Assembly (NCBI GenBank): GCA_016839585.1
Contig: JAEOTZ010000074.1
Coordinates: forward strand, 1-62,083
DNA: 62,083 bases
From: Promethearchaeota archaeon
GTDB lineage: Archaea > Asgardarchaeota > Lokiarchaeia > Sigyniarchaeales > SOKP01
Direction of reading: 5' to 3'
A model generated the notes under the pieces. That model did not search any database and had not been told where the DNA came from. It saw only the letters and a program-made list of their open reading frames with translations. This document shows positions 34,958 through 52,883 of the stretch, one piece after another. The position numbers and the translations under genes were made by a program. How positions within the stretch are numbered: the stretch's first letter is position 1; each line of letters starts with the position of its first letter.

Positions 34958-35083
34958 TTAATTTTCTGTAATGGTTGGCTCAATATCTTCAAGTTCTAAA
35001 AGCCTTTTAGCTTCTTCTTCTAAATCGACACTAAAGATATCGGTGATCCCACTTTGTTGCATTGAAACTCCATAGATTCTATC
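34958..35083 (-). pseudogene. smc: Stranded 3' fragment of smc (41 codons plus stop)
   Basis: Translates DRIYGVSMQQSGITDIFSVDLEEEAKRLLELEDIEPTITEN*; the first 32 aa are identical to the C-terminus of the intact SMC (48435-48554). Confidence 0.93.
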
Positions 35084-35338
35084 TAGTTTCTTAACTATAA
35101 ATTATTCTCTAATCTTTTATTTATTTATCTATAATGTGATGATATTATTCTACCCTTAAAATTTTTAATAGATCATTATTAATCATTTAAAAGTAAAATA
35201 ACTAATCTATTTACTTTTTTAGATGTTAAGGTTATTTTTAGGATTAGTATTTAAAGAAAAAATTCGACCCATCATTCTCATTATTTTTCTTTATATATGT
35301 TGATTTGAATTTTATGTTCAAAAAAAAAATGATCAAAA

Positions 35339-35671
35339 ATGGTAAAATATTACAAACATAATAAGATAATAAAATTATGCACTGTCCTTGGAGCACTCTT
35401 AGCATTTTTATATTGCTTTTTTACTTTATTAAACACTAATAGTATTACTATATGGCCCATAAGTTTCAGTATTAACGGAGTTAATGGTATTATTATTGGA
35501 ATGATAGCCGCTACCTTAACATTTCTAGTTACAATGAAACCTGATGATCCCCTACCATGGCATTGGCTTACCCTTATTGTATTTGGGGTACTACTTTTCA
35601 TTTTCTGTCACATTTTACCTGGTATCTTGGTCTTTATTGGTGCAATTATAGGTATAATAGATGAAATTTAA
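35339..35671 (+). CDS. Small multi-TM membrane protein
   Basis: Three to four hydrophobic helices in 110 aa. Confidence 0.7.
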   Translation: MVKYYKHNKIIKLCTVLGALLAFLYCFFTLLNTNSITIWPISFSINGVNGIIIGMIAATLTFLVTMKPDDPLPWHWLTLIVFGVLLFIFCHILPGILVFIGAIIGIIDEI

Positions 35672-35686
35672 AAGGTGATGTAAAAA

Positions 35687-38600
35687 GTGAAAAGAGTTCA
35701 AAAAGTTTTATTCTGTTTTTGTTTTCTAGTGTGTATCAGTTCAATATTTTCGATAGAGGGAAGTTTAGGTCAAGATACTCGATTTCGACAAGAATTTATT
35801 CAAAATGAACAGATTGATACAAAAGATGAGATCAATAACAAGCCGATCCTCTCTTCTTCAAAAACCAACTACGAAATAATTCAAGAGATATTTTCAGCTA
35901 AATTATCAGATTATTCCTCGTTAGGATATTTTCCGCAAGTATATGAACCATCCTTACAAGCAACATTTTACGCACTTTATATATATAAAGTCATTGAACA
36001 ATTAGATCAGATTAGTTTTAATGATACAATAGAGTTTATAATGTCCTATTATAATAATACTACAAATATATTCTATGATAAGTATGCATATAGATTTTTG
36101 GATACTGATTTCTCACGTACATATTATTCTCTTTCTACGCTTCTTGAAGTTAATTGTTATGCAATCTTATCCTTAGGTATTTTAGATAGGTTAGATTTAA
36201 TTGATAAACAGAAGTCAATCGATTTCATTTGGAGTTGTTACAATCCACTCTCAAGCGGATTTATTGGACAACCCTATGATGTGGATTTAGAGGATTCATT
36301 TAAAATTTCTACTATGGATAACACATATTTTGCAGTTATGACACTAGACTTGTTAATGGATGACTGGAGTAGTTATACAGTTAAGAAAACTGAGGTAATA
36401 CAATATATTAATGACTTACAAGATTCAGTAAGTATTGATTGGAAATATGGAGGATTTTATAATGATAACAATAATACATTTGACAGTTTGACTCCTACAA
36501 AAGACCCCAGCCTTCTTTCTTCTTACTATTGTATTAAAACTTTAGAAATTTTTGAATTGGGAGATACAATTAATAAGATAAGTTTTCATCAATTTCTCGA
36601 TGAGTTATACATTATCAATGAAAATTATTTTAAAATGTCTAAGCTGGATCATAACTATACAAATATTGTTGCTACTGCAATTGGATTAGATCTTTCTTTA
36701 ACGACAGGATATTCAAATATAGATCAAAATGCTGTGACTAACTTTATTTTAAACCATAGAAATCATCTTAACATATGGGATTCCTCAACAACAGTAGCCA
36801 TGTATGAGTTAATCGACACATTCCAGATTATAAGGTCTTTAAATTCCACAGGTGCAATTTCTACCTTCAGTTCTTCCGAAAAGACTCAAGTTGCTAACGC
36901 TGTCAAAAATTTTTATCAGTTTAAGGGCTTTTCACTTACTTCTAAAGAATATACATCTCTAAAGCTTAATAATACAATTGTATCATCATTTCAATTGTTT
37001 GATCGAATTTCAGATTTAGATATACAAAATCTTTATTTAGTCATAAAGGAATGTTTTAGGCAATATGATTATCCTGAATATTGGTACGGATTTATAGATT
37101 ATATAAATGCTGATCCTTTGAAACCTGGTTTTCGGTCTCATCCTATTGAATACTATAATATAGGACATCGTAATTATATTACCGAAATTGATATGGTAAT
37201 GACTTTTAAATCGCTCTTTTTTGCCTTAGATTCAATGAATAAGCTATTTAAATTGGATGACTTTAATGGAGAATTTGGACTAGAAATTCTGATTAATGAT
37301 ATTATACAATCACAGTTTCTAAGCGATTCTTATCCAGAATATTACGGAGCATTTTTACCAATGCGTGGAAACTCCTTCTTTTCATATGAAAGCCAAATAA
37401 AGAAGATATTCTTTAAATATTCTTATTATGCCATAAAATCGTTAGAAGTACTAGTTAACCATCTGAATTTAGGAAATATTGTTAATTTATCTTTTAATAA
37501 AGGAGCATTATATGGATACATTGAAAGAAATATCATTGAAACCTCCTCCACACTCTATTTTGATCCAAAATACACTTCCAATGTTGATATTATCTTAGAA
37601 AATACTTATTATATGATCTATATTTTAAAAACACTGGATCTTTATGATTTAAACAGTCAAAAGATCGAAGAATTTGTACTCCAAAACATAAATTATGATA
37701 ATATAGACAATATCTATTATTCTTATAAAATTTCAGAAATCTTGAACTTAGAAATTGATTTTAACTTTGAACTAACGGGGGATTTAGTTAATTTACTATA
37801 TTCAGAGGATTTGAAAGAGTTTTATATAAGCTCCGATTGCGAAATGATTAACCAAGAGATTTTTCTCTGGATATGTGAAATGGCGAAAAATAGTGAATTA
37901 AAATTTATATGCGAATATGATGAATTGATTAACTTAGGAAGTGTCAATACCATTTCAACATCTTTTCGTAATCTGATTCTATCTAACTTTGGTCCATATA
38001 CTTCTGTTAAATTCGAAAGCTCTCAATTTGGTGTCTTAATCCTTGAGAGACAATTCGATAATACCTATCAAGTAAATTTAATGATTCCAGAAGATCCTAA
38101 CTACTATCCTTATGTTGAGGGGGATATAAAGGTATATGAAGGATCAAGAGTAATTGGTCAGACATCGGTATTCTTTCAGACTGAGTTTGAACAAATTGTT
38201 AATTATACAATTTTAAAGAATAAGGAATGGATTAAATTTGAAATAAACATATCTCGGAAATTCAACTCAGGATTTCAACCAGTTTATAATTCAACAGTAT
38301 CTATTGATATTATCAAAGATGACCAAGATCTTGTAACTTTAAATTTCAGTCGTAAAGATTACATAAGTTATTCTAAATTTACTTTAACCTATGGATACAA
38401 TGGATTAGGAAAATACTTTTTTAATATTATTATCATTGATGATTATTTTCCAAATGGTCAAAATATACTATCATACCTACAAACGATTTCAGAACCAGAT
38501 CCATTTGAGCTTAAAGTTAAAGGACCAATCTTAGCAGGTTTGAGTGTAGCAATATCAGCTACTTCAATGGTCGCAATAGTTAAAGGTGGAAGATGGGTTA

Positions 38601-38725
38601 AAGGAGAGAGAAAAAAGGAAAAACAAAGAGATACCAGTGAAAAAATTGAGAATGAAAAGCAAAAAAAGGATTCTAATGAAGAAATTAGTGATCTAAAAGA
38701 ATCAGCCTTTAAAGACTGGAATTAG
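35687..38725 (+). CDS. Secreted, C-terminally anchored protein with prenyltransferase/squalene-cyclase-like alpha-barrel repeats
   Basis: Signal peptide; repeats such as ATFYAL, SSGFIG, NTYFAV, YGGFY, SSYYCIKTL; C-terminal TM helix and charged tail. Confidence 0.7.
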   Translation: MKRVQKVLFCFCFLVCISSIFSIEGSLGQDTRFRQEFIQNEQIDTKDEINNKPILSSSKTNYEIIQEIFSAKLSDYSSLGYFPQVYEPSLQATFYALYIYKVIEQLDQISFNDTIEFIMSYYNNTTNIFYDKYAYRFLDTDFSRTYYSLSTLLEVNCYAILSLGILDRLDLIDKQKSIDFIWSCYNPLSSGFIGQPYDVDLEDSFKISTMDNTYFAVMTLDLLMDDWSSYTVKKTEVIQYINDLQDSVSIDWKYGGFYNDNNNTFDSLTPTKDPSLLSSYYCIKTLEIFELGDTINKISFHQFLDELYIINENYFKMSKLDHNYTNIVATAIGLDLSLTTGYSNIDQNAVTNFILNHRNHLNIWDSSTTVAMYELIDTFQIIRSLNSTGAISTFSSSEKTQVANAVKNFYQFKGFSLTSKEYTSLKLNNTIVSSFQLFDRISDLDIQNLYLVIKECFRQYDYPEYWYGFIDYINADPLKPGFRSHPIEYYNIGHRNYITEIDMVMTFKSLFFALDSMNKLFKLDDFNGEFGLEILINDIIQSQFLSDSYPEYYGAFLPMRGNSFFSYESQIKKIFFKYSYYAIKSLEVLVNHLNLGNIVNLSFNKGALYGYIERNIIETSSTLYFDPKYTSNVDIILENTYYMIYILKTLDLYDLNSQKIEEFVLQNINYDNIDNIYYSYKISEILNLEIDFNFELTGDLVNLLYSEDLKEFYISSDCEMINQEIFLWICEMAKNSELKFICEYDELINLGSVNTISTSFRNLILSNFGPYTSVKFESSQFGVLILERQFDNTYQVNLMIPEDPNYYPYVEGDIKVYEGSRVIGQTSVFFQTEFEQIVNYTILKNKEWIKFEINISRKFNSGFQPVYNSTVSIDIIKDDQDLVTLNFSRKDYISYSKFTLTYGYNGLGKYFFNIIIIDDYFPNGQNILSYLQTISEPDPFELKVKGPILAGLSVAISATSMVAIVKGGRWVKGERKKEKQRDTSEKIENEKQKKDSNEEISDLKESAFKDWN

Positions 38726-38951
38726 AATGTAGATCTTTCAAAATAAATTTCATAAAATTCGAAATTCTTTATTCTCTTGAATTAGATAAATCGATTTAGA
38801 CATCTTTAACATATAAATATGCTTTTTACTTTCAGTAAAGGTATCATACATCTTATTTAATCCACCCATCTTTTTCACATCATCATAAATATTAAATATT
38901 CAATGATAATCTTCAATTATAATAAAGACAAAATAAAAAATTTGATCTCTA

Positions 38952-41900
38952 ATGAAAGGGAGAAATATTACTATAATCTTTATCTTTTTTTTTATTTTAT
39001 CTACTAATCTATCATTTCCATTCAAGTGCTTAAATTCTAATGGAAATAATATCAATTTGATAAATAAGATCGATTTAAAAAATAATGGTTATTGGAATCT
39101 CACGGGAGCGAATATTTTCATTGATGACCTTGATCCTTCAAGAAACTGGTCTTATACAGCATCTCAGTATGATTGGTGTTCGGGTTCTGGTACTTGGAAT
39201 GAACCTTATATAATTGAAAACGTTACGATTGATGGTCAAAATACTGGAAGTTGTATTACCATTAAAAATTCTAATAAATTTTTTAAAATTAATAATTGTA
39301 CCCTCTATAATTCTGGTTCATTAAACACAAGAATGGGTATTAAATTAGAAAATGTTGAAAATGGATTGATAACAAATAATAGTTGTTATCTGAATGGTAA
39401 TGGAATATATGCATTATTGAATAATAATATAACAATTATGCAAAATAATGCATCAAATAATGCTTATAGTGGATTCCATTTCAACGGAAATCAATCACGA
39501 GTGACTAATAATACTGCATCATATAATTCTTATGATGGGATATCCCTTTTTTCATATAGTCGTGATATCATTGTGTCAAATAATACAGTAAGCTATAATG
39601 GAAGAAGCGGAATAAACTTATATAGTAGTGATAAAAGTGTTATAGCAGATAATTTAATTAAATATAATGGCTATGGAATCTATTTATATAGAGATTGTGA
39701 TAATAATAATTTAACAAGAAATAAAGTTTTTCACAATAATAATGGAGGAATAGTTATATTTGCATGCTTCTATGAGACAGCACAAGATAATATAATTTCA
39801 GAAAATATAATACACCATAATGGTGTTGCAGGTATTCGATTAGAGGGGGTATATGAGGATGATTTTTATCCTAATATAGAATGTTATAGAAATATTGTGT
39901 ACAACAATGAAATTGTTGATCATACATATGGAATATTCATAAAAAATTACGCTATTGAAAATGTGATTTTTGGCAACAATATCTCCCAAAGTTCATATAA
40001 TGGGATATATATCCGATTTGGTAGTGAGTTGAATTTAATTTATGAGAATCGTTTGACAAGTAGTACTTATGAAAACGCAAAAGATAATGTAGGAAATAAT
40101 TATTGGGATAATGGTATTATAGGGAATTATTATGACGATTATCAAGGAAAAGATGAAAATGATGACGGAATTGGAGATACTCCCCATAATATAGGTGGTT
40201 TAGGAGGAAGCGTAGACCATTTCCCTATCTGGGATGACGGAGATGATATTCCTACTCTTATTAATATAATTAAGCCGATTAACAATACATTTTTTGGAGT
40301 TATTCCACCAAATTATGAAGTGCTAATAGATGCTGCAGATTTAGATACTTCTTGGTATACTTTAAATGATGGAATAAAGTACATTTTCACTACTTCGACA
40401 GGAATCATAAATCAGAGTGCATGGGATGCATGTGATAATGGAACGGTGAAAATAACATTTTTTGTAAATGATACTGCTGGTCATTTAGGATCTAAAGAGG
40501 TTTATGTCTACAAAGATATTTATTTTCCAAACATTACAATTATCTCTCCAAAGAAAAATCAATTATTTAGTCATGAAACAATTGAATTTGGGGTTGTAGT
40601 TGACGAGTCGAATTTAAATTCAATTTGGTACACATTAAATGGTGGTCCAATATACTTATGTAATGAAACAACTGGGATGCTTAATAGTGAAGCATGGGAA
40701 AGTTGTGGAAATGGTTCAGTCATTATACGCTTCTATGCAAATGATTCAGCTGGAAATGTTGATTTAAGTGAAGTCATAGTCCGTAAAGATGTTGAAAGTC
40801 CTATTATTTCAATCATATCACCCACTTCTTTTCAATTATTTGGAAACAATACTATTGATTTTGAACTTACTATTGATGATGGAAATTTAAATACTACATG
40901 GTATACTTTAGATAATGGGTTGAATAACTATACATTTTTAGGCACATTAGGGATAATTGATCAAGATGCATGGGACGCTTGCGACAATGGTACTGTTACT
41001 CTAGGTTTTTATACTAATGATACTGTAGGGAATATCGCTTTTAAAGAAGTTATAGTGAGAAAAGATAATATTAATCCAGTCATTAATATTATTAAACCAG
41101 AACCATATGATACCTTTGGAAATTCTACTTTTTCTTATGAGATTCATATTGATGAAGCAAATTTGCATTCTATATGGTATTCTTTTAACAATGGTATCAA
41201 TAATTATTTTATAAATCAATCCATGGGGATTATTGATCAAGAATTTTGGGATCTGTTTGGAAATGGAACAGTAATCCTTTCTTTTTACGTTAATGATTCT
41301 GTAGGAAATTTAGGGTTATCTCAAGTAATGATTAGAAAAAATATATATGCTCCTGTTATAGTATTTGACTTTTCTGATACATATTTAAATACAACTACAC
41401 CTGAATATTATCATAAAGGCTTAGAAGTATCATGTGAAGTTCTAAATTATACTTCTCTATTATGGGTTTATCTTTGTGAAAATTCTAGTGGACTAATGGA
41501 AAATCGTTCTATGATTTATTTAGGCAATGGAATATGGACATATACAATCGATATTACAGCATTAGAATGGAAAGATCAATTTAGTTTTTACTTTCTTACT
41601 AAAGATATCTTAGGATATAGTGGTATCAATAATAATTTTACCAATATGTATACGATAAAAATACATGATTTTCAAGTTCCAATTATTACTATTAATTCAC
41701 CAATCACAAATGAGTTATACGGACTTCAAGCACCAACATTCGATATAGATATAAATGAATTATATCTTCAAGAAAAGTGGTACTCATTAAATGGAGGTAA
41801 TAACATAACGTTTACGACAGAAACTCAATTTGATCAAACTGAATGGAACAAAATAGAGAATGGTACAGTTCTAATTATTTTCTATGCTATAGATGAAACA

Positions 41901-42320
41901 GGAAATATGAATTCGAGTAAAGTTATCGTAAGAAAAGATGGATATCTACCAGATATTATAATCAATTCTCCGATGGATATGCAAAAATTTGGTAAAACTG
42001 CTCCAGATTTTAACATATCTATAATTGAAGAAAATTTTGTCTCTGCATGGTATACCATAGAAGGTATTGTAGGAATTTTTAATTTTACTGGATTGACTGG
42101 TACAATCAATCAAGATGCGTGGGATAATGCACCTGAAGGAGAGATAACCATAACCTTTTATGCTATAGATGGAGCAGGGAGTACAGGGAGTGAAAGTGTT
42201 GTTGTCATAAAAAGCATCCCTAGTACTGGTCCAGTAATTCCAGGATATAATATATTCCTTATACTTAGCGTTCTTTCAGGTTTTACAATCCTATTGAATA
42301 AAATAAAAAAGAAATCGTAA
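38952..42320 (+). CDS. Cell-surface protein: NosD/CASH right-handed beta-helix, Ig-like repeats and Loki-CTERM-like tail
   Basis: GI.L...NN.I..N repeats; GNYYDDYQGKDENDDGIGDTP; about 6 WYTLN...NGTV...NDxxGN repeats; IPGY-TM-KKK tail. Confidence 0.85.
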   Translation: MKGRNITIIFIFFFILSTNLSFPFKCLNSNGNNINLINKIDLKNNGYWNLTGANIFIDDLDPSRNWSYTASQYDWCSGSGTWNEPYIIENVTIDGQNTGSCITIKNSNKFFKINNCTLYNSGSLNTRMGIKLENVENGLITNNSCYLNGNGIYALLNNNITIMQNNASNNAYSGFHFNGNQSRVTNNTASYNSYDGISLFSYSRDIIVSNNTVSYNGRSGINLYSSDKSVIADNLIKYNGYGIYLYRDCDNNNLTRNKVFHNNNGGIVIFACFYETAQDNIISENIIHHNGVAGIRLEGVYEDDFYPNIECYRNIVYNNEIVDHTYGIFIKNYAIENVIFGNNISQSSYNGIYIRFGSELNLIYENRLTSSTYENAKDNVGNNYWDNGIIGNYYDDYQGKDENDDGIGDTPHNIGGLGGSVDHFPIWDDGDDIPTLINIIKPINNTFFGVIPPNYEVLIDAADLDTSWYTLNDGIKYIFTTSTGIINQSAWDACDNGTVKITFFVNDTAGHLGSKEVYVYKDIYFPNITIISPKKNQLFSHETIEFGVVVDESNLNSIWYTLNGGPIYLCNETTGMLNSEAWESCGNGSVIIRFYANDSAGNVDLSEVIVRKDVESPIISIISPTSFQLFGNNTIDFELTIDDGNLNTTWYTLDNGLNNYTFLGTLGIIDQDAWDACDNGTVTLGFYTNDTVGNIAFKEVIVRKDNINPVINIIKPEPYDTFGNSTFSYEIHIDEANLHSIWYSFNNGINNYFINQSMGIIDQEFWDLFGNGTVILSFYVNDSVGNLGLSQVMIRKNIYAPVIVFDFSDTYLNTTTPEYYHKGLEVSCEVLNYTSLLWVYLCENSSGLMENRSMIYLGNGIWTYTIDITALEWKDQFSFYFLTKDILGYSGINNNFTNMYTIKIHDFQVPIITINSPITNELYGLQAPTFDIDINELYLQEKWYSLNGGNNITFTTETQFDQTEWNKIENGTVLIIFYAIDETGNMNSSKVIVRKDGYLPDIIINSPMDMQKFGKTAPDFNISIIEENFVSAWYTIEGIVGIFNFTGLTGTINQDAWDNAPEGEITITFYAIDGAGSTGSESVVVIKSIPSTGPVIPGYNIFLILSVLSGFTILLNKIKKKS

Positions 42321-42476
42321 ACCATTTTTTTTCCTTTTTTTGCTTCCATTTTTATTACCTACATTTATTGAATCCAAAACTCAAGTCAATTTTTCTTCTT
42401 TTTTTTTACTTTTTGTTTACTTTTTATGTCTTTATGAAGATAAAAAACATAATATAAATAATTTAAAAGTTGAATT

Positions 42477-44729
42477 TTGAAAATTAAATATTTTAGAGAA
42501 ATCAATAAAAAGTTCTTTCTAATTTTATTCATTAATTTTTGCGTTATATTACTGTTATTTCATAATAATAATTTTTATGTAGATAACCAGAAAAAAGGCG
42601 TCCTAAATTCATCAAATGTACTTGGAGATGATGATAGAGTAAGAATCACTCCTACAACCTCTTATCCCTGGAGTAAAATTGTAAAATTACGTATAACTTG
42701 GGGAGGCTCGAATTATATTGGTTCAGGCGTGATAATCGATAAAAATCATGTACTCACTGCTGGACACTGTGTATATCAAAATTCTCTTGGAGGATGGGCT
42801 GAATCAATAAAAGTTTCTCCAGCTATTGATAATGGAAATGAGCCTTATGGGTATGCTTGGGTGATTAACATGCGTACGTATACTTATTGGATAGAAAGTC
42901 AATACACTCAATATGATTTCGCTCTCTTAACCCTAGACCAAGATATTGGTCTGCAAACAGGATGGATGGAAATTTATTCAGGTGAATCATCTGATCCAGT
43001 TTATAGAGGAGATCTTAATATAGCCGGTTATCCTTACGATTTAGATAATGGACAAAATATGTACTGGTGCTATGAAAGTGGACGGATTGCTACTGAAAAT
43101 AATCACTGGTATTATTTGGATACAGAAGGAGGTATGAGCGGTTCTCCTGTTTGGTTCGATGATGGAACTAATAAATATATCCTCTCAGTTCACACGTGTG
43201 GCAATGATGGTTCGGGAAGTAATCATGGAACCACGATAAATCAAAATAAATTATATGCCATTAATAATTGGATCTTTGTGGAAGAAACATCTATTGATAA
43301 ACCTGATTTAGCCTCTGGAACCAATGATTTTGCCAGTTTTAATACAACGATAGTTGGAGCAGGGATAACACCTTTTAAAACTTGGTGTGATGTTCATAAT
43401 GTAGGAACAACCCCATCAGGTTCCTTTATTATTTCATATTATGCTTCAAATGATACTATTATTTCAGAGGAGGATTATCTACTTGGGATTGCACCTATAT
43501 CTTCAATTTCTCCTACAAAATATAAAAGTTCAAGTTGGTCCGGGATTTTTCCTGAAAATGTGCCAAGTGGAAGATATTACATTGGTAGAATTCTAGACAT
43601 TAATAATAATATCGATGAATTCAATGAAAACAATAATATAAACTATATATCACCTACCAAGATTTTAGTTGATGCTACTCCTCCATTAAATCCTACATCA
43701 TGCATACAATTAGAAGGCTCAACACAGAATAATGTATGGCAAGGTTCGGTAAATGATCCTTTCTTCAGCTGGGATGGAGCTTCAGATGTTCATACAAATG
43801 TTGCAGGTTACTATTATTATTGGGGACCTGATCCTAATGGAACATCCACTAATTTTATCACACCTTCAAGTTACGATCCACCGGCAGTTAGCTCAGGTAT
43901 ATATTACCTGCGAGTTAAAACTCAAGATGGTGTTGGAAATAATGCAACGTGGAAAACTCTCTATATTTTTAAGTATGATGATACACCACCTCTAAATCCT
44001 ACCATTTGTAATCAATTAGAAGGATCGACAAAAAATAATATATGGCAAAATAAGGTAAATGATCCCTTTTTTAACTGGAGTGGGGCTTCTGATACCCAAT
44101 CTAATATAGCAGGATATTATTATTACTGGGGACCTGATATTAATGGAATATCATCTTCATTTACTTCATTAAATAGCTTGGATGCACCAATAGTTAGTTC
44201 AGGAACAAATTATCTAAGGATTCGAGCAAAAGATAACGCAGAAAATAATGCATCATGGATTACCCTTTACACTTTTAAATTTGATGGAATAGTACCTTTA
44301 AACCCTTCAACATGCGATCAATTAGCTGGCTCTACTCAAAACGATGTTTGGCAAGGCTTAGTAGATGATCCTTTCTTCAATTGGAGCGATGGGCTAGATT
44401 CTCACTCAGGTGTAGCTGGATACTATTATTATTGGGGTACTGATCTTAATGGAACATCCAATAATTTTACTATACATCCCATTTTTAATCCTCCAGTAGT
44501 GGAAACAGGAGTTTATTATCTAAGAATCCGCACAAAGGATAATGCAGGAAATAACGCATCATGGACCACGCTTTATATTTTTAAGTATGATGAGAGCTTA
44601 AGTAGTGTAGATAATAATTCAAATCATAGTTCTATAATGAAAAGTATCTTTATATTTGAAGTATTCGTAATTATTGCTCTTATTTGTTTGGTATCAATAT
44701 ATCAATTTAAAAAGCGCTTGAAGAGTTAA
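42477..44729 (+). CDS. Membrane-anchored trypsin-like (V8/S1B-type) serine protease with CARDB-like domain and three tandem repeats
   Basis: TAGHC, YDFALL and GMSGSP catalytic triad; DxNNxIDEFNENNN; C-terminal TM helix. Confidence 0.88.
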   Translation: MKIKYFREINKKFFLILFINFCVILLLFHNNNFYVDNQKKGVLNSSNVLGDDDRVRITPTTSYPWSKIVKLRITWGGSNYIGSGVIIDKNHVLTAGHCVYQNSLGGWAESIKVSPAIDNGNEPYGYAWVINMRTYTYWIESQYTQYDFALLTLDQDIGLQTGWMEIYSGESSDPVYRGDLNIAGYPYDLDNGQNMYWCYESGRIATENNHWYYLDTEGGMSGSPVWFDDGTNKYILSVHTCGNDGSGSNHGTTINQNKLYAINNWIFVEETSIDKPDLASGTNDFASFNTTIVGAGITPFKTWCDVHNVGTTPSGSFIISYYASNDTIISEEDYLLGIAPISSISPTKYKSSSWSGIFPENVPSGRYYIGRILDINNNIDEFNENNNINYISPTKILVDATPPLNPTSCIQLEGSTQNNVWQGSVNDPFFSWDGASDVHTNVAGYYYYWGPDPNGTSTNFITPSSYDPPAVSSGIYYLRVKTQDGVGNNATWKTLYIFKYDDTPPLNPTICNQLEGSTKNNIWQNKVNDPFFNWSGASDTQSNIAGYYYYWGPDINGISSSFTSLNSLDAPIVSSGTNYLRIRAKDNAENNASWITLYTFKFDGIVPLNPSTCDQLAGSTQNDVWQGLVDDPFFNWSDGLDSHSGVAGYYYYWGTDLNGTSNNFTIHPIFNPPVVETGVYYLRIRTKDNAGNNASWTTLYIFKYDESLSSVDNNSNHSSIMKSIFIFEVFVIIALICLVSIYQFKKRLKS
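43670..44590 (+). repeat. Three ~306-bp intragenic tandem repeats in the protease gene
   Basis: PLNP...CxQLxGST...DPFFxW...AGYYYYWG...YLR...NNAxWxTLYxFKxD occurs three times. Confidence 0.9.
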
Positions 44730-44892
44730 AAACTCAGGTAATTAAATTTTTTTTAACATTATAATCACTTAGATTATATTAAAGATAAAATGTAGAATAA
44801 ATTTTTCATACAAGAAACTTTTTATATGAATTATTAATATGACGTCTTGATAAAGTAATTAAAGTCTAAGTTATCAGATTTTTTGAATTAAA

Positions 44893-45585
44893 ATGATTGA
44901 AAAGACAAGTCAATCAAATAGAAATGAAGAAGATCCACCCTCTGTAGAGAATAAACAAAATAAGGAGCAAAAAGTCTTCGATGATAAAATCATTAAAATT
45001 AGTGATTCATTGATGAAAACTTATGTAATAGGAGGTTTATGTCTTACTTTTCCCGGATTTTTAATATTATTCATCTTTCTTTTTAGATTCTCACAGGAAT
45101 TTGAAACACCTCAATTAATTTTTACTGTTTTATTTATAGGGGGGTTTCCCATTATTACAATATTGATTTTTTATTTCATTAAGGGTCTAAGAAATTCTAC
45201 ATTTATTATGTCAGTTAATAAACTTGAGTTTTTTGCCAATAAATTTTTATTTTTAAGATTATATTGGACAGAAATTGAAAAAATAATAGTACAAAAAGAG
45301 ACATTTAGAAGACCTGTGAGTAGATATACTCTCTCATTTACTGCTTCGGATTCTGGTTATTCTTTAAACTTTAGTGGTGAAAATCTAGATAGAATCATTA
45401 ATCTCTGGTGTTTTCCTTTTAGTAAAAAAAAACAAAACGCAATTATAGATGGATTAGACAGATTTTCACAGAGACATAATAAAAAATTAATTTTAAAGAA
45501 TAAAATTGAAGATTTATATGATTATAATAAGTTACCATGTGAAGAAATCAATAATTTCATGAAATTACATAAGAAGAGAGTTTAA
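44893..45585 (+). CDS. Two-TM membrane protein with soluble C-terminal domain
   Basis: Two hydrophobic helices followed by a beta-rich segment (LYWTEIEKI, bPH-like). Confidence 0.7.
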   Translation: MIEKTSQSNRNEEDPPSVENKQNKEQKVFDDKIIKISDSLMKTYVIGGLCLTFPGFLILFIFLFRFSQEFETPQLIFTVLFIGGFPIITILIFYFIKGLRNSTFIMSVNKLEFFANKFLFLRLYWTEIEKIIVQKETFRRPVSRYTLSFTASDSGYSLNFSGENLDRIINLWCFPFSKKKQNAIIDGLDRFSQRHNKKLILKNKIEDLYDYNKLPCEEINNFMKLHKKRV

Positions 45586-45718
45586 GTATTGAAGAGAATA
45601 ATTCAAATCATAATTTTATAACAAAAATTATCTTTTTGGAAGTTTTTATAATTATTGCTCTTATTTGTGTAATATCAATATATCAGATTAAAAAGCGCAA
45701 AAAAAGATAAAAATTCAT
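45573..45718 (+). repeat. Diverged direct repeat of the protease gene 3' end (copy of 44589-44737)
   Basis: Translates EESLSIEENNSNHNFITKIIFLEVFIIIALICVISIYQIKKRKKR*, versus DESLSSVDNNSNHSSIMKSIFIFEVFVIIALICLVSIYQFKKRLKS* in the intact gene. Confidence 0.88.
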
Positions 45719-45810
45719 AATGTTGATTTCTTTAAGGAATGTATTTTTTTCATTGATTTCTTTTTTTTAAACTCTTTTTCTTTAAATATATCTGATAAAA
45801 TTAAGATCAA

Positions 45811-48402
45811 ATGGTTGAAAAAAGTTCTAAAAATAATTTCCCTAATCGCTGCAAATTCTGTGGGTGGAAATTTCCGAATGAATTAGTTGAAAGAATTAAT
45901 AAGAATAGTGATTTTCTATTTTGTGAACTCTGTGGTGCTGAAGTTAGATATAATAATGTGAAAAATCAAGAAAATGATGAAACTATTGAAAGTAAGAGTG
46001 ATAATGATCCAGGTGGCAGCATTGATAAATCAAAAAGTTCCCCTTGGAAACGATTCTATGAAACAATAAAGAATTTCATAATTGAAAATGAAGAGGGAGA
46101 AATTCAAGAAGGTTTAACTAAGAAACAAAGGGAACAAATTTTTAGAGTTTATAAAAACCCTGATTTTCCTCAAATTTTCAAAAGTAACTTTATTATTGTC
46201 TTTGCGCGAATTACTTATTTTGAGTTAAAAAAGCTAAAGAGCACGGCACATCTAAGGAATAGTAAAAGGAATTTAACAAAAGCTGAACTTAAAACTTTAA
46301 CAGAACGCCTTTCTCCAATTGCTAAGAAGGATATTAAAGTTGAATTCTTAAAAGACCTACATAAAATATCCCAAAATGATTTTAAGAAAAGGTTGAAAAG
46401 ACTACAAGTTAAATTGAAATCAAGCTCAACTTACTATCATGATTTCATCACCTACATTCAATGGCTTATAACAATTATCGCTAAAATCGTTTCAGAACTG
46501 TGGGATAATACAAATCTCCCCAAATTTGAACAAACAATACTTGAAGATTTAAAAAATTACTTTTACACCAAAAATAATATAAAAAATGATCCTGAAGAAA
46601 ATTTAACTGATAATATTTTAAAAGATGATTTTAGAAAAAATAATTTTGGGAAATTCTGCCATGTGGTAGTTGAGTATATTAAGAAGAGAATAGGGATTTC
46701 TAATAACAGATTTGACGAATATTACATACACATTAAAGAAAAGGGGCTTAATAATGAGGAGATACTTGAAGATGTTCTTTCAGACGATACCCTAACTAGA
46801 TTTCTAAAAATTTCAAATATTGATGCCCAAATTGACGATAGGTATATTAGCTCTAAGAATAGAAATAAGACTAAAAGAATTATACAAATCATTGCTCTTT
46901 TATTATTAAAATGCCCCAATTATCATTGTGTTGTTGACAATTTATCACGAATTGGGATAAGTTCTAAAACTAAGCAAAAATTAAGTAAACAAATGGCTAG
47001 AAAATCTGTTAGAAATTTTTTGAACAAGTTTCAAAAATTATATCCGCAAGTTGATCTTCAAAAATGGCTCCCGAAACCAAAGGAGAAATATACTCTTGAA
47101 TATATTAAAAACCTAGTAAAAGTAGTCAGTATAGAAAGAATAGGAGTAGAGGGGGAATTAATAGAACCTGAAACTGCTCAAAAATTTAAAGCTTTGAAAA
47201 ATAAATTGAGTTTAAAACCGGGTTCAGTGCCTTTAAAAGTTAAGTGTAGAAAATGTGGGGGGGTATTAAAAACTATGGGAAAATATCTCGAACGGGGAGA
47301 TTGGCCATGTAAATTATGTTTAGGATATATATATTCTTATAAAATGCTTAAAAGCGCAGTAAAAATGGTAAGTATTGAGAAAACATCTATTGAGGGTAAA
47401 TTGTTATGGCCTTCAAATGAAAATGATTGGATCAAGTATATATATAATCCAAATAGAAAATCTAAACCAAGTAGAATTCGATTAACGGTTCAATGTGGGT
47501 CCTGTGGAAACATATGGCACCCAGAAGCGCGAGCAGTAGTGCAGGAGAGACAGTGGTGTAAAATATGTAGTTGGAATGTGTTAACTTATGAAAAACTTGT
47601 ATTTTTAGTAGAATCTGTAGGATTAAATAAAACTGGAGTTAAAGGGATTTTAATCCGTCCTGAAAACGAAAACAAATTCAATGAACTTCTCAATAATGCT
47701 AGGAATATAATTGAATCTCTAAATATTAGTAAAAATAACCCCCGTTATAAAGGGTTGCAGCCAAAAAGATTAGGAATACAAGTTAAATGTGGGTTTTGTA
47801 AAAACCCATTTTCTACAAATGCAGAACGTTTGATTGCAAATAAATTTTGCCCTAGATGTTCATCTGGGGAGTATGAACAGATAATTTGTTGGTATGCTTC
47901 AAAAATCTTTAGTTATATTACAAAATCTAAATTAATTTTTCCAAAAGTACAATTAAGCAAAGTAATTAACAGTTTTGATAAAAATCGTTATTCACAAGAG
48001 GAACTAAATGCTATTGAAAACTTAATTAGAAAAGGGGGAGGCCATATTGATGGATATGAAAAATTTACTCTAGAATATAGTTGGTTAAAATTGGGCATTG
48101 AATATCAAGGGGAATACCATTATAAAGTTAAAAAATATTTAAATATGACAGATATAGATTTGGAATATCGTAAATTATTAGATTATTTAACAAAGGATCT
48201 TTCTGAACAGAATGAAATAATTTTATTAATATTTCCTTATTATGTTGATCCTTATATGCGGCATCCTAAAAAGATACAGAAATTTATTATTAATGAATTC
48301 GAAAGGTTAACTAATATTGATATAAAAAAGTATAATATTCCTCTATTCGACCACAGAACTCCAGAATTTGGCCAATATCGGTTAGATAATTATCTTAAGT
48401 AA
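45811..48402 (+). CDS. Zn-ribbon-repeat endonuclease, EDxHD/Vsr-like (homing-endonuclease-like), with PIP-box-like tail
   Basis: N-terminal CKFC...CELC; three repeats each ending in CxxC...CxxC; GEYEQ...IDGY...IEYQGEYHY...D; ends QYRLDNYLK. Confidence 0.72.
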   Translation: MVEKSSKNNFPNRCKFCGWKFPNELVERINKNSDFLFCELCGAEVRYNNVKNQENDETIESKSDNDPGGSIDKSKSSPWKRFYETIKNFIIENEEGEIQEGLTKKQREQIFRVYKNPDFPQIFKSNFIIVFARITYFELKKLKSTAHLRNSKRNLTKAELKTLTERLSPIAKKDIKVEFLKDLHKISQNDFKKRLKRLQVKLKSSSTYYHDFITYIQWLITIIAKIVSELWDNTNLPKFEQTILEDLKNYFYTKNNIKNDPEENLTDNILKDDFRKNNFGKFCHVVVEYIKKRIGISNNRFDEYYIHIKEKGLNNEEILEDVLSDDTLTRFLKISNIDAQIDDRYISSKNRNKTKRIIQIIALLLLKCPNYHCVVDNLSRIGISSKTKQKLSKQMARKSVRNFLNKFQKLYPQVDLQKWLPKPKEKYTLEYIKNLVKVVSIERIGVEGELIEPETAQKFKALKNKLSLKPGSVPLKVKCRKCGGVLKTMGKYLERGDWPCKLCLGYIYSYKMLKSAVKMVSIEKTSIEGKLLWPSNENDWIKYIYNPNRKSKPSRIRLTVQCGSCGNIWHPEARAVVQERQWCKICSWNVLTYEKLVFLVESVGLNKTGVKGILIRPENENKFNELLNNARNIIESLNISKNNPRYKGLQPKRLGIQVKCGFCKNPFSTNAERLIANKFCPRCSSGEYEQIICWYASKIFSYITKSKLIFPKVQLSKVINSFDKNRYSQEELNAIENLIRKGGGHIDGYEKFTLEYSWLKLGIEYQGEYHYKVKKYLNMTDIDLEYRKLLDYLTKDLSEQNEIILLIFPYYVDPYMRHPKKIQKFIINEFERLTNIDIKKYNIPLFDHRTPEFGQYRLDNYLK

Positions 48403-48434
48403 ATTCTAGTAAAAGGATTCTTTCTATACTTTTT

Positions 48435-51400
48435 TTAAATAACAGTACTTTCTTCTTCCTCTAATTCTAAAAGTCGCTTTGCCTCTTCCTCTAGATCTAC
48501 ACTGAAAATGTCTGTTATCCCACTTTGTTGCATGGAGACACCGTATATACGGTCTGCGTTAACTATATTCTCTTCACGATGGCTTATTACGAGGAACTGG
48601 GCTTGTTTTGAGAATTCACGTATCTGCATTGACACCCTATGGACGTTCGGCCCATCCAAGGCGGCATCAATCTCATCCATAATGTAAAAGGGTGCTGGAT
48701 AAAATTCTTGCACGGCAAAAATAAATGAAAGTGCCACGAGTGTTTTTTCACCCCCACTGAGAATTTCCAGACTTGAAATTTTCTTCCCACGAGGTCGAGC
48801 TTCGATGCTAATCCCTCCTTCAAAGGGTTTATCAGGGCGATCTAGGATCATTTTAGCCGAACCACCGGGACTAAGCTTCTGGAAAATTCTACTGAACTCT
48901 CTATTTATTTCATGGTAAGCTTTCATGAAGGTTCTTGTCTTCTCAAGTTCTATTTTATCTATTGCGTCTAAGATCGCCTTGCGTTCACGTTGAATAGTCT
49001 GTCTTCGCATATCTATCTCGTCGAATCTCTCTTTTACGGCATCATATTGTTCAATGGCTTTTAAGTTGACTGGTTCAAGAGCTTTTTTCTTCGTTGTTAC
49101 GTCCCCAATATCTGATTGTAATTCAGCTTCTGTTAAATCCTCAGTAACAGGAGGGAGTGCCCCATATTCTTTAGATCTCTGGAATAGAGTCTCTATTTGA
49201 TCAGTACAAATTATTTTTTTAGCTTCATAATTATTTATTTTAGCATTTTCCATAGAAAGATCTGATTTTAAATCATTTAAGATTTTTTGATATTGCTTTT
49301 GCTTTCTCCATGATTCGTCCTTTTTCAGATTGAATTCATCGATTTCTTTTTGTTTTACATCCTTTTTTCCATTTTCACTATTAAGTTGTTGCTTAAATTT
49401 TTCTAGTTCTTCTAAAATTGATTCTATTTGTTTTTCAGTATCTTTAATATCTTGATTTAATTCTGAAATTTTTTGTTCTCTTTCCTTATTTTTGTTTAAC
49501 TCATTAATTTGGCGTTGATATTTCTGTAAATCCTTATTTAATTTATTTAATTCTTTTTGAGCTGCTTTTTGTAATTCTACTTCTTTTGTTTTTTCATTTC
49601 TCAAGGAATCTATAGTCTGTTGTTTTTGATCAACATTTTTTTGAATTTCATCTACTTGAGAATTGAAATTTTCAATATTGTTAAGACAGAGTTCAATTTT
49701 ATTATTAGCATCTATATTCTCTTTCTTAATATCTTCAATTGAATTAATAATTCTCATCACATTTTCAAGTGCTCTTAGACGATCCATTGTATCTTCTAAT
49801 GACTCATTTTCCTTGTCTATTTGTTTTCTTAAACTTTCTGTTTTTTCCCAAAATTTTTCTTTTTCTAAAATTAATGCTTCAATTTTGTTTTGTAAGGTAT
49901 TTTGTTCTGTATGAATTTGATTTATGCTTTCTTCTGTATTGATAATTGAATTTTTCTTTTCCTCAATAATAATATTTAACTTTCCTATGTCAGAATCAAT
50001 TTCTGTAATATTTTCAAATAAATTTTGGATTCCGTGCAATTCTTGAAGATTTTCTCTTAAGTCTTCTAATTCTTTTTGTTTTTTATCAATATCATCTTGA
50101 ATCTTCGAAATATTTTCCCAGTAAGTATCTTTTAGTTCTTTTAATTTATTTATCTCAATTTCTAATTTTTCTGTTTCTTTTTGCTTCTCATTGACTAATT
50201 TCTTTCTTTCTTCAATTTCTAATTCAGAATTTTTAAATTTTTCATTTAATTCCTTATTTCTTCCATTAATTTCTTCAAGTCTTCTTGTTAATGTTGACGA
50301 GGTTTCTGAATTATGTTTTTTTAGAAGACTTAATTCTGACAATTTTTTCTCCGCACTATTAAGATCATCTCCTTGTGATTTAATATTTTCAGAGATATCT
50401 TCTAGTTGCTTATATAAATCTTGACTTTTTGACAATGTTAATTTTCTTAATGAAATATAGACATTTTCAAGAATTTCCATTAAATCCTGTACAAAGCTAT
50501 CAAAAGTTGAGGTTGATTCTTGTACTTCTACATCAGCAGATTCTTTAACTCTATTAATTAATTGATCAATTGTTGAATCTGCATTATCAGTAAATAATTT
50601 TAAAGTTCGGAGGATGGAATTTAACGTGTATGACATTTCAGAGGATTGTTCAGTATCCTCACTAATCCCCTCAACACTTTTCATGATATCTACAATATCT
50701 AGAATAAACTTTTTGAAATCTTCAGCAGAGGTCTCAATTGCTTCTGCATTTGATAATTGGATGTTACTTTTAATAGATTCAACAGAAATGTTAATATTTT
50801 GAGTGAGCATATTTAAAATTTGAAGAATTCCCGTTATATCTCTGGTATTTTTCTCATATTCTTCTTCAGAAGATTCTATTTTTTCTAATAAACTATCTCT
50901 TTCCTTTGTAAGTTCTTCTAAACGTCTTTGAATGTTCTGACTTTTAGAATTAAAATTTTCTGTATCTTTTTCTATTTTTGATAGATTACTATTTAGAGAA
51001 TTAATTTGCACTTCTGAATTACCCTTTTCACGCTCTAATTTAGTTAATTCTTTTTTAAAAATTTTTAATTCTGTATTGATATTATCTATTTTTGCATTAT
51101 TATCATGAATTTCTGAATCAAATGAATATTGTTTCATCTTTAAAAGTTCTAGATTTTGTTCATTACTCCTGAATACTGAGTTTTCTTTTTTCAAAGCTGT
51201 TTTTAATTCACTCAATTGTTTGTTAATATTTTCATTTTCTTTCAATAAACCCTTTACAACTTCTTCTGTGTCTTTACCTTTACTTAAATCTCTAATTTTA
51301 TTCTCAAAAGATGCTTTTTTATCATTTAAATCTTGGATTGTATTTCTATTCATACTAATTTCAGTATTCAATGATGATAATGTAGATTGTAGAAGAACTA

Positions 51401-52883
51401 ATTTTGAATTTAGTTGGTTTTTTTCTTCTTGAATGGCATTAATGTTAGTTTCTAACTCTTTTTGTTTTTGATTTTCTTCATTGTTTTTAGTTTTTAAATC
51501 TTCAATCCTCTTTCTAATTTGTTTTTCAGTCTTTTTTGCCTCATCAATAGCTTCATCTATACTTTCAGCTTCTTGTTTCAATTTATTCAATTCAGTTTCT
51601 AATTTAATTTTCTTTTCTTCATTCTTTTTTATACTTTCTCTAAGAAGCTTTATCTGGGTGTTATTTGATGAGATGTTTTGTTGTACTTTTGAAATTTCCG
51701 CTTTAAATTGTGATTTTTCATCCTCATTATTTTTAATTTTTATATCAAATTCAGATTGATTTTGTTGTCTTCTTTCAATTTCCTTTTTAGCTGCTTCGAG
51801 GTGATTTTCACACTCAGAAATTTGACCAGATACATCTTGAATTAAAGAATCATAAGTTTGTCCTTCCTCAAGTACCATTAGTAAATTCTCTAAATTTTTT
51901 ATTTCTTGTGTCAATTTATCTATTGATTTTCTAGCTAAATCTAAAGTAGTTTGACTTGAAGATAATTGTGTCTTTAAATTTGTTATGTTTTCGTTTACTT
52001 CTTCTCTTTCCTTTTCTCTATCAGTAATCGTTTTCTGAATGTTCTCCATAACTAATGATTCTTGTTTCAGGATATCTTCTTGTCGAGAGATCTTTTCTTT
52101 AAGTTCTTCAATAATTTTTGAAGATTCTTCGACCTTTTTTTCTAATTCATCTTCTTCTTCTCGTAATTTTGAAATTTTTAAAGCAATTAATTTTGAATTT
52201 AAGAAATTTATTTGTTGATCTAATTCTTTCCAAGCTAATGCATCATTTTTTTCTTTTTCAACTTTTTTAAGCTGAGCAGAAACTTCTTTGAAAATTGCTT
52301 CAAACTGTCCTAAATCTCTTTCTGCTTTTTCTAACTCTTTTAAAGTGGAATCTTTCATTTCGTCATATTTCTGAAGCCCAATTAATTCTTCAATGAATGA
52401 TCTTCTCTCCTCTGCATTCATATGAGTTAATTCAACAATTTTACCTTGAAGTACGAATTGGTTACTACCATCTGGATCTACATTAGCTGCTGCTAAAGCA
52501 TTGAGAATCTGTTGGCGAGTAGATTTTTGACCATTCATTTTATAACCCCCACCACCACCTTTTTTAATAGTTCGTGTTATTTCGAATGTATCGGTACTCC
52601 CGGGAAAAACATTTTCTGAATTATCAAAATACATTGTCACAGAAGCTCTTGTCGAGGGATTTTTTCCTTTAGCACCAGCAAAAATAAGGTCTTCCAAACT
52701 TTTTGCTCTCATAGTCTTCTTACTTAGTCTGCCTAAAGCAAAACATAATGCATCTATAATATTAGATTTCCCAGCACCATTTGGTCCAACAATACATGTG
52801 AAACCACTTGAAAATTTGATTGTTACTGTTCGTTCTCCAAATGATTTGAAACCAGTCATAGAGATTTTTTTAATATATGTCAA
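48435..52883 (-). CDS. smc: Chromosome segregation protein SMC
   Basis: GFKSF, GPNGAGKSN, VLQG Q-loop, LSGGEK signature, MDEIDAALD, ISH; long coiled coils; TTG start. Confidence 0.97.
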   Translation of the reverse strand: MTYIKKISMTGFKSFGERTVTIKFSSGFTCIVGPNGAGKSNIIDALCFALGRLSKKTMRAKSLEDLIFAGAKGKNPSTRASVTMYFDNSENVFPGSTDTFEITRTIKKGGGGGYKMNGQKSTRQQILNALAAANVDPDGSNQFVLQGKIVELTHMNAEERRSFIEELIGLQKYDEMKDSTLKELEKAERDLGQFEAIFKEVSAQLKKVEKEKNDALAWKELDQQINFLNSKLIALKISKLREEEDELEKKVEESSKIIEELKEKISRQEDILKQESLVMENIQKTITDREKEREEVNENITNLKTQLSSSQTTLDLARKSIDKLTQEIKNLENLLMVLEEGQTYDSLIQDVSGQISECENHLEAAKKEIERRQQNQSEFDIKIKNNEDEKSQFKAEISKVQQNISSNNTQIKLLRESIKKNEEKKIKLETELNKLKQEAESIDEAIDEAKKTEKQIRKRIEDLKTKNNEENQKQKELETNINAIQEEKNQLNSKLVLLQSTLSSLNTEISMNRNTIQDLNDKKASFENKIRDLSKGKDTEEVVKGLLKENENINKQLSELKTALKKENSVFRSNEQNLELLKMKQYSFDSEIHDNNAKIDNINTELKIFKKELTKLEREKGNSEVQINSLNSNLSKIEKDTENFNSKSQNIQRRLEELTKERDSLLEKIESSEEEYEKNTRDITGILQILNMLTQNINISVESIKSNIQLSNAEAIETSAEDFKKFILDIVDIMKSVEGISEDTEQSSEMSYTLNSILRTLKLFTDNADSTIDQLINRVKESADVEVQESTSTFDSFVQDLMEILENVYISLRKLTLSKSQDLYKQLEDISENIKSQGDDLNSAEKKLSELSLLKKHNSETSSTLTRRLEEINGRNKELNEKFKNSELEIEERKKLVNEKQKETEKLEIEINKLKELKDTYWENISKIQDDIDKKQKELEDLRENLQELHGIQNLFENITEIDSDIGKLNIIIEEKKNSIINTEESINQIHTEQNTLQNKIEALILEKEKFWEKTESLRKQIDKENESLEDTMDRLRALENVMRIINSIEDIKKENIDANNKIELCLNNIENFNSQVDEIQKNVDQKQQTIDSLRNEKTKEVELQKAAQKELNKLNKDLQKYQRQINELNKNKEREQKISELNQDIKDTEKQIESILEELEKFKQQLNSENGKKDVKQKEIDEFNLKKDESWRKQKQYQKILNDLKSDLSMENAKINNYEAKKIICTDQIETLFQRSKEYGALPPVTEDLTEAELQSDIGDVTTKKKALEPVNLKAIEQYDAVKERFDEIDMRRQTIQRERKAILDAIDKIELEKTRTFMKAYHEINREFSRIFQKLSPGGSAKMILDRPDKPFEGGISIEARPRGKKISSLEILSGGEKTLVALSFIFAVQEFYPAPFYIMDEIDAALDGPNVHRVSMQIREFSKQAQFLVISHREENIVNADRIYGVSMQQSGITDIFSVDLEEEAKRLLELEEEESTVI

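Follow-up and report, generated by a model that had tools for sequence, protein, structure and literature searches.

How does a conserved chromosomal gene come to have its 3' end in two places, spelled in different codons, with 13.3 kb of other genes in between? The question is raised by a stretch of 62,083 nucleotides (hereafter the window) from a Promethearchaeota archaeon of the Asgardarchaeota (assembly GCA_016839585.1, contig JAEOTZ010000074.1, positions 1 to 62,083), whose genome we label G000. In the window, smc is separated from scpA and scpB, all three on the minus strand, by five cargo open reading frames (ORFs) and a nuclease gene, all on the plus strand; the distance from the smc stop codon to a displaced smc tail, the remnant, is 13,352 bp. 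The remnant (35083-34958, 41 codons) abuts the GGTGAG ribosome-binding site of scpA. The nuclease gene converges on smc, with 32 bp between their stop codons (48402 and 48435). Over 32 residues identical in both tails (D1444-E1475), 21 codons differ and every difference is synonymous, and a domain search found no integrase or transposase domain in any ORF of this island. In outline, these features had been reported in a first-pass annotation of the sequence, and recounting bears them out. We propose that the locus is probably an intron-less and intein-less homing element that works like the WHO elements of yeast.

The origin of the two tails was examined by comparison with two close sisters of G000: G089, in which the site is empty, and G075, which carries another nuclease and another tail. 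Both are approximately 97% identical to G000 at the nucleotide level over smc codons 1-1371 (96.8% for G089). The remnant is 97.6% identical to the native smc end of G089 and 99.2% identical to the remnant of G075, whereas the tail now on smc is 72.5% identical to G089 over codons 1376-1443 and 75% over codons 1444-1474, and 69% identical to G075 over codons 1393-1475. Because the two tails differ so widely in their identity to the empty sister (97.6% versus 72-75%), the alignments confirm the remnant as the native smc end and the tail now on smc as a foreign allele.

Identity to both sisters collapses at codons 1372-1392, and two sets of contigs, X5 (from a run of an independent study) and X6, fork at 48742. 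From these two signals the replaced piece is confirmed, at the resolution of the alignments, as about 105-110 codons, reaching from the ABC signature motif to the stop codon and starting near 48,770-48,740 (codon ~1375). The island boundary had been placed at 49,200 in the first-pass annotation, which is too far out, since the tract of codons 1250-1372 is common to the empty sister. This tract is 98-99% identical to G075 and G089, has a GC content at third codon positions (GC3) of 0.30-0.33 in all three genomes, and is probably older, the scar of an earlier event. Native codons 1376-1443 occur nowhere in the G000 locus, and G075 lacks native codons 1376-1415 on either side of its insertion. 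The candidate target zone in Table 1 was chosen because the native version is missing there, remnants in other genomes start at L1409, and both GC3 and amino-acid variation peak in it. No additional decayed smc tails were detected within the islands at E<1e-3.

The synonymous differences between the tails had been read as recoding. Ten of 30 degenerate codons match between the two tails, against 14.8 expected for unrelated alleles with the codon usage of this genome (P about 0.025), and the other tail comparisons are at synonymous saturation, not beyond. We rejected synonymous-only change as proof of designed recoding, since both copies derive from working smc tails and 10 of 30 is only slightly below expectation. 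The 'recoded' tail is best called a foreign allele at, or slightly past, synonymous saturation.

The arrangement is real. The longest exact repeat common to the island and the rest of the genome is 42 bp, and X5 contigs bridge both the nuclease-tail junction (46571-48749, with 29 differences) and the remnant junction (35045-35640), so it is not the misassembly that the first-pass annotation had allowed for. A contig of the source study covers 46539-49796 with zero differences. Nor is it a product of chance, because the codon matches between the tails fall below expectation while the remnant is nearly identical to the native tail of the sister. In both X5 and X6, the island has a lower contig depth than smc and scpA have (approximately 10-13 versus 30-40 in X5), a hint of mixed alleles, although depth gives no share of cells. 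In G089, the assembly breaks between the ends of contigs C84 and C73 (L105, L106), with a 77-bp overlap that begins exactly at the position of the remnant junction in the window. An island end was sought in G089 and none was found; the break hints at a second allele in that sample.

The nuclease combines zinc (Zn) ribbons with a catalytic domain that we assign, on the basis of a structural model, to a Vsr-like fold. Its residues E689, D747, E764, H770 and D791 are invariant among 12 homologs and follow the same order as E170, D196, H213 and D222 of I-Bth0305I, with different spacing; this comparison is one of order, without superposition. The model (predicted local distance difference test score 83.8) aligned with Vsr (1cw0; Z 8.4, root mean square deviation (rmsd) 3.8, 129 residues aligned) and with I-Bth0305I (3r3p; Z 7.6, rmsd 3.8, 98 of 98 aligned), and RAP domains tied with these (Z 7.7-9.0). 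Foldseek returned no match at E<=0.001 and a sequence search of the PDB nothing clear; in the domain search the nuclease had no match to LAGLIDADG, Hint or NUMOD, and it had none in PHROGs. The earlier description of a Zn-ribbon EDxHD/Vsr-like nuclease thus holds for the Zn ribbons and the Vsr fold, but the protein is not a member of the intron- or intein-borne EDxHD group.

Close orthologs of the window nuclease were absent from 135 genomes of the family, from 5.8 billion proteins (in a near-length search only) and from one metagenome scan, except for a piece on metagenome contig L138. One homolog is labelled Promethearchaeota by NCBI. The L138 piece is decayed, is 81% identical to the end of the nuclease, and is followed by a convergent decayed smc tail (0 of 2000 shuffles). 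Because this decayed copy lies beside a decayed smc tail, the sequences suggest that the lineage of the window nuclease, too, has been linked to smc. Other relatives end convergently at a RuBisCO-like gene, twice at a Zn-dependent dehydrogenase gene, and at a ClpB-like gene (L107:9067-12043; L108, L146; L125:4766-8958), which are possible further targets. A related nuclease clade (L131-L137) occupies one fixed position, convergent with a conserved gene for a 207-residue protein, in at least seven genomes.

The same anatomy recurs in related genomes. We looked first at 22 genomes of the same genus, in which smc and scpA are contiguous in 17 and separated by islands of 6.5-37 kb in five; the cargo differs among the five islands, and each has a convergent nuclease by the smc stop. 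A nuclease clade that we name after genome G017 was then found in 14 of the 135 family genomes, its members being 62-74% identical where intact; weak matches to CapR and DUF4379 point to Zn-ribbon repeat arrays. All 12 testable members, from four genera and with two pseudogenes among them, abut the smc 3' end, and none of the 12 lies elsewhere. Two genomes lie outside the 12, namely G138, in which the two genes end on different contigs, and G093, in which there is no smc match; G138 was nevertheless scored as nuclease-adjacent in the GC3 comparison and the trees. The remnants in G004, G008, G017, G075 and G101 begin at L1409-1410, four of them with an ATG or TTG start codon, and the G000 remnant is shorter than these five. 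The conserved right end of the island includes a motif of 33 nucleotides that recurs, with 0-6 mismatches, upstream of its remnant in each of these five genomes as well as in G000, and G000 holds no second copy of this right-end element. It is possibly a promoter that restores scpA-scpB transcription; a sigma-70 promoter scan was discarded as uninformative for an archaeon.

The smc segment beside the nucleases has its own history. In nuclease-adjacent alleles, GC3 is raised only at codons 1376-1443 (0.365 versus 0.25; 14 versus 59 empty alleles, with kin in both sets not independent), and at codons 1100-1249 the two groups do not differ. Amino-acid changes cluster at codons 1400-1429, and D-loop variants, among them A1408Q in two genera, recur across genera and also in empty 'scar' alleles. 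The same foreign patches are present in several empty alleles (G002, G005, G012, G019 and others), as expected from island loss or from conversion without an island. Over codons 1000-1249, G000, G075 and G089 form a tight group, but over codons 1376-1443 their grouping is rejected (approximately unbiased (AU) test, p=0.0009): the G075 tail groups with genomes of another genus, and the G000 tail with the island allele of G008. Both comparisons proposed in the first-pass annotation were therefore informative, that of the smc-scpA loci, which revealed empty sites, variable cargo and recurrent linkage of nuclease and smc, and that of separate trees for the 5' and 3' parts of smc, which are discordant. 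Together, these data document the anatomy, the ancestry of both tails, the recurrence, the loss of native sequence and the horizontal spread of the segment.

In WHO elements at the yeast gene FBA1, a nuclease cuts the sensitive allele, and repair proceeds via the host gene on one side and a displaced fragment on the other, so that the recipient is left with a chimeric gene that is resistant, with the nuclease, and with a new fragment that was once its own gene end; the fragments share a start position, which lies at the WHO cut site (PMC7282813). We hypothesize that the functional unit in the window is similar, consisting of the free-standing Vsr-like nuclease gene and the foreign smc 3' end. 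The nuclease would cut a sensitive smc allele within the ATPase-head codons ~1376-1443. The left end would then recombine with donor smc near the signature motif (~48,770) and the right end with the displaced tail or scpA of the donor, and everything between these arms would be copied. The recipient would thereby gain a resistant tail, the nuclease and any cargo in between, and would lose its native cut region, its own last codons staying as the remnant before scpA. The conserved non-coding right end probably restores scpA-scpB transcription. Two-sided repair of this kind would account for the loss of native codons and for a foreign tract that begins upstream of the remnant start, which single-crossover integration does not explain. 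The mosaic structure would result from repeated rounds by different nucleases, from island loss through recombination of the two tails and from exchange of cargo via a shared N-terminal module of the nuclease. We infer cleavage, the target site, immunity, the promoter function of the right end and the path by which DNA passes from cell to cell. We consider a WHO-like element the probable reading of the locus, and lean slightly towards the enzyme of the window itself, rather than an earlier smc-specific one, as the driver of the last event.

Table 1. Features of the smc-scpA locus, with coordinates in the window.
Feature	Position	Strand	Remarks
smc	48435..52883	-	1482 aa, intact single frame; Pfam SMC_N E=1.4e-38; native 5' part and foreign 3' end
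Replacement tail	48435..48770	-	codons ~1372-1482, signature motif to stop; last 7 residues unique
Candidate target zone	48555..48686	-	Walker B/D-loop to H-loop, codons 1400-1443; proposed from sequence, not mapped
Older GC3-rich tract	48771..49136	-	codons 1250-1372; outside the present insertion
Nuclease gene	45811..48402	+	863 aa, intact frame, convergent with smc
N-terminal module	45811..46598	+	aa 1-263, Zn ribbon and helical domain; also present in proteins with other C-termini
Zn-ribbon units x3 (CxxC...CxxC)	47245..47859	+	CxxC pairs aa 479/500, 562/583, 660/680
Predicted Vsr-like catalytic domain	47860..48402	+	E689, D747, E764, H770, D791
Displaced native smc end (remnant)	34958..35083	-	41 codons plus stop; frame open from in-frame ATA at 35098
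Conserved non-coding right end of island	35100..35170	-	shared with other islands, upstream of remnant
scpA	33945..34940	-	ATA start; directly after remnant
scpB	33102..33917	-	PF04079 E=1.6e-33
110-aa membrane protein	35339..35671	+	cargo; travels with the 1012-aa gene
1012-aa alpha/alpha-toroid membrane-anchored protein	35687..38725	+	cargo; PF00432; 90% nucleotide identity to G075:C41
1122-aa surface beta-helix (NosD-like) and Ig-repeat protein	38952..42320	+	cargo; PF13229, PF05048; absent from the G075:C41 block
750-aa surface trypsin-like protease, CARDB/Ig domains, C-terminal transmembrane segment	42477..44729	+	cargo; PF00089, PF13365, PF07705; 88.9% nucleotide identity to G075:C41
230-aa membrane protein	44893..45585	+	cargo; no family

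Two further smc loci and scpA gave observations of their own. The smc gene on contig C1 of G006 has a frameshift or stop near codon 878, and an insertion or split in smc on contig C180 of G021 proved only apparent, being a scaffold gap. In the window, scpA has approximately 85 extra N-terminal residues (34940-34690) with a helix-extended-helix-like motif, which is kept in relatives.

Several observations weigh against this reading of the locus, most of them concerning the enzyme and its cargo. The window nuclease is 27% identical to the smc-linked G017-type clade, its nearest intact relatives (37-44%) adjoin genes other than smc, and it deviates at two near-invariant alignment positions, K151 and C155. 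Three cargo genes are 89-90% identical to genes of an island in G075 next to the gene for DGGGP synthase, so cargo need not come by smc homing. The N-terminal module is 76.6% identical at the nucleotide level to that of the nuclease in that same island. The island holds no DNA-transfer genes. Pairwise AU tests (G000+G089; G008+G020+G078), on 204 columns, were not significant, and in other genera there are smc-scpA inserts, some of them without a nuclease and without a remnant.

The G075 island spans 14.7 kb (C41:92793-107400; L118, L119), at a site that is empty in G000 (C86:2841-2852), and its nuclease has a third kind of catalytic domain. The N-terminal module of the window nuclease is also 82.8% identical at the nucleotide level to a gene on G000's own contig C33 that has another C-terminus; the module's similarities stop at 46559-46598, that to the C33 gene at 46598. 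Related cargo blocks are found at the smc locus of G004 and of G060, and close to valS in G005. Because the cargo and the module match islands and genes elsewhere, the island is, to judge by these alignments, a mosaic in which a right end of the smc type is joined to a mobile block of cargo and to a nuclease of chimeric make-up. The module heads several other proteins of G000 (C33:5815-7869, and on C5, C75 and C78); its matches in the Atlas are TFIIB-like (0.88-0.89) and are weak leads only.

This mosaic structure invites a different account, in which homing by a G017-type enzyme founded the locus and the window nuclease, with its cargo, arrived as a later passenger block that does not cut smc. 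The right-end element, common to G017-type islands, would fit such a history, as would the shared cargo and module at a site empty in G000 and the position of the nearest intact nuclease relatives at other genes. However, the adjoining smc tail is unique and not that of G075, the catalytic half of the nuclease is only 29% like the G075 island enzyme, and a decayed relative stands beside a decayed smc tail elsewhere. We regard the account as possible but doubtful; it invokes the same homing mechanism and differs only in the driving enzyme. The overall island interpretation in the first-pass annotation is partly borne out, by the empty sites, the native remnant, the foreign tail, the recurrent linkage of nuclease and smc, the variable cargo, the absence of an integrase linked to the islands tested and the discordant trees; that the window enzyme cut smc and brought in the cargo in a single step is a conjecture.

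Recombination without any nuclease, homologous or homology-facilitated, with the conserved smc head as anchor and the nucleases as passengers, would suit the highly variable cargo, the nuclease-free inserts in other genera and the tail duplications without a recognised nuclease elsewhere in G000. It appears unlikely, because in each of the 12 testable genomes a member of one nuclease clade lies beside smc, with none elsewhere, and because divergence is concentrated in just those motifs that are most conserved and whose likeness passive anchoring would preserve.

Bacterial islands integrate at icd, prfC or tRNA genes with a replacement 3' end carried in attP. Site-specific integration of this type by a tyrosine recombinase acting in trans is distinctly improbable here. 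An Xer-like recombinase is present in every genome, and the fixed remnant start at L1409 together with the conserved non-coding arm could be an att site. A single crossover, however, conserves the recipient's DNA in full, whereas native codons 1376-1415 have gone from G075 and 1376-1443 from G000, and the foreign tract has its start 35 codons further upstream than the remnant does. The left zone and the right end have no word longer than 9 bp in common, which leaves no duplicated att core. No integrase gene is present at the island end, here or in five related islands: tyrosine recombinases (PF00589) were absent from the islands of G000, G004, G008, G017 and G023 and from two island contigs of G075, the relatives having been searched for PF00589 only, and the sole PF00589 gene of G000 is on a contig other than that of the island. 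The constant convergent nuclease and the foreign patches in empty alleles would also be left unexplained.

The smc-scpAB genes are expected to matter for chromosome organisation. That importance, and a resident tail that differs from the native one, would be in keeping with a true toxin-antidote drive, in which cells or chromosomes with a naive smc are killed or crippled and in which spread or persistence of the element involves no copying into the break. The first-pass annotation had called the locus a candidate for this cleave-and-rescue class. We consider the assignment very improbable, because the element sits inside its target with homology on both sides and, as we infer, copies itself, for which WHO elements are the matching precedent; its patchy presence among sisters points to repeated gains, and synthetic cleave-and-rescue (ClvR) drives have as their defining trait a rescue that is unlinked and withstands gene conversion (PMC6442612). 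Homing may kill as a side effect. An assembly artefact that joined the smc loci of two strains has next to no chance of being correct: the genome is metagenome-assembled and strains with other alleles appear to co-occur, but the shortness of the repeats, the bridging of both junctions by the independent study's contigs and the same anatomy in other genomes speak against it.

Two further gene ends in G000 have been replaced beside nucleases, each leaving a native remnant by comparison with G089. At lpdA (G000:C59:8053-33275; L120, L121), the gene has a divergent tail, a convergent HNH-type gene encoding 1203 residues lies 7 bp from its stop, and 23.5 kb of cargo, including a HerA-like gene, Cas6 and Csm6, precedes a remnant of 78 codons with an ATG that is 90-93% like the native end in G089. 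Fragments of lpdA tails also occur in G003 (two), G023, G100 and G019. A VWA gene (G000:C47:177489-178996; L074:10490-11997) presents the mirror case, with a synonymously divergent 5' end, a gene for a 366-residue Vsr-like nuclease before it, and the native first 24 codons, matching G089, stranded after a MoxR ATPase gene; G089 is empty at this site and G075 has another insert there. Separately, four short duplicated gene tails lie 0.4-4 kb downstream of their own genes with no recognised nuclease (C20:11096-11197, C53:2453-2536, C67:18792-18914 and C90:26814-26882).

We speculate, tentatively, that Loki-type Asgard archaea harbour a general system of integrase-free islands. In it, a block of surface-protein cargo would end in a gene that begins with the shared N-terminal module, and exchange of the nuclease behind this module, along with a foreign gene end to match, would redirect the whole block to smc, to the DGGGP synthase gene or to others. 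The window would then result from such a redirection: a second enzyme that cuts smc, unrelated to the first, would have its site in codons 1409-1443, and its arrival would have selected for deletion of that part of the older remnant.

If cleavage is confirmed, tail-replacement homing, tested so far only in yeast, would have arisen again in archaea with an unrelated nuclease fold, and would have come to carry surface and defence genes by the kilobase. Asgard archaea would have a route of gene gain that escapes integrase-centred surveys, and two chromosomes would have to share one cell often enough for homing. It would also mean that smc ATPase motifs are exchanged between species and genera, while smc is used in Asgard phylogeny and in work on the origin of eukaryotes. 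With the three sisters, naive G089 and the two island carriers G000 and G075, which differ in nuclease and tail, a cleavage test can be designed directly.

Our search of the literature on Asgard or Loki plus homing, including Asgard mobile-element surveys and with most subscription papers outside its reach, found no description of such an element, and we found no published report of such a tail replacement in archaea. New with this locus are a sister genome that is naive, another sister that differs in nuclease and tail, the presence at smc of a second lineage of nucleases, and evidence for the movement of cargo between targets. Among known systems, ClvR also links cargo to a cutter and a divergent, presumably immune copy of an important gene, but it sits at a site other than its target, includes a complete rescue gene and spreads because non-carriers die (PMC6442612), whereas the locus in the window has a partial rescue fused in place, homology on both sides, and would copy itself. 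Free-standing homing endonuclease genes (HEGs) and HEG-islands of phages likewise have nucleases at exchange boundaries beside essential genes, and Zn-ribbon repeat arrays; their donor DNA arrives by phage co-infection, and the displaced native end kept as a second homology arm is the mark of the present element (Barth, Dunham and Seed 2023, PMC10055350). I-Bth0305I and the EDxHD homing endonucleases share the Vsr-like fold, the order, though not the spacing, of E, D, H and D, and DNA-binding repeats N-terminal to the nuclease; they differ in being intron- or intein-encoded, with 266 residues and NUMOD repeats, where the window enzyme is free-standing, has 863 residues and Zn ribbons, and spaces Q and H by four residues instead of five (PMC3239194). 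In fungal mitochondria, for example those of Endoconidiophora resinifera, free-standing HEGs at atp6 and cob also lie between a full gene and a C-terminal duplicate, but these are organellar, LAGLIDADG or GIY-YIG enzymes with no protein-coding cargo block (PMC6279837).

The closest likeness is to the WHO elements (Coughlan et al. 2020, PMC7282813) and their arms race (Osborne et al. 2026, 10.64898/2026.08.13.744650). In both systems, a free-standing nuclease, encoded in neither an intron nor an intein, lies downstream of a conserved gene; the gene's 3' end is replaced by a divergent allele, and the old end is left downstream with a common start position. Several divergent nucleases occur at one target, filled and empty alleles coexist (59 empty alleles were scored here), the phylogeny is discordant with amino-acid variation near the site, and some members relocate to other genes, taking kilobases of DNA along. 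The WHO nuclease, however, is an intein-like, HO-related LAGLIDADG enzyme directed at FBA1, whereas the window enzyme is Vsr-like with Zn ribbons, and its target would be smc. The archaeal chromosome, moreover, undergoes no meiosis, and its islands have a convergent orientation, 3-37 kb of intact cargo genes and a right end that is conserved and non-coding and provides a start codon to the remnant; the window has no tandem nuclease cluster. The element thus works like WHO but is not a member of that family.

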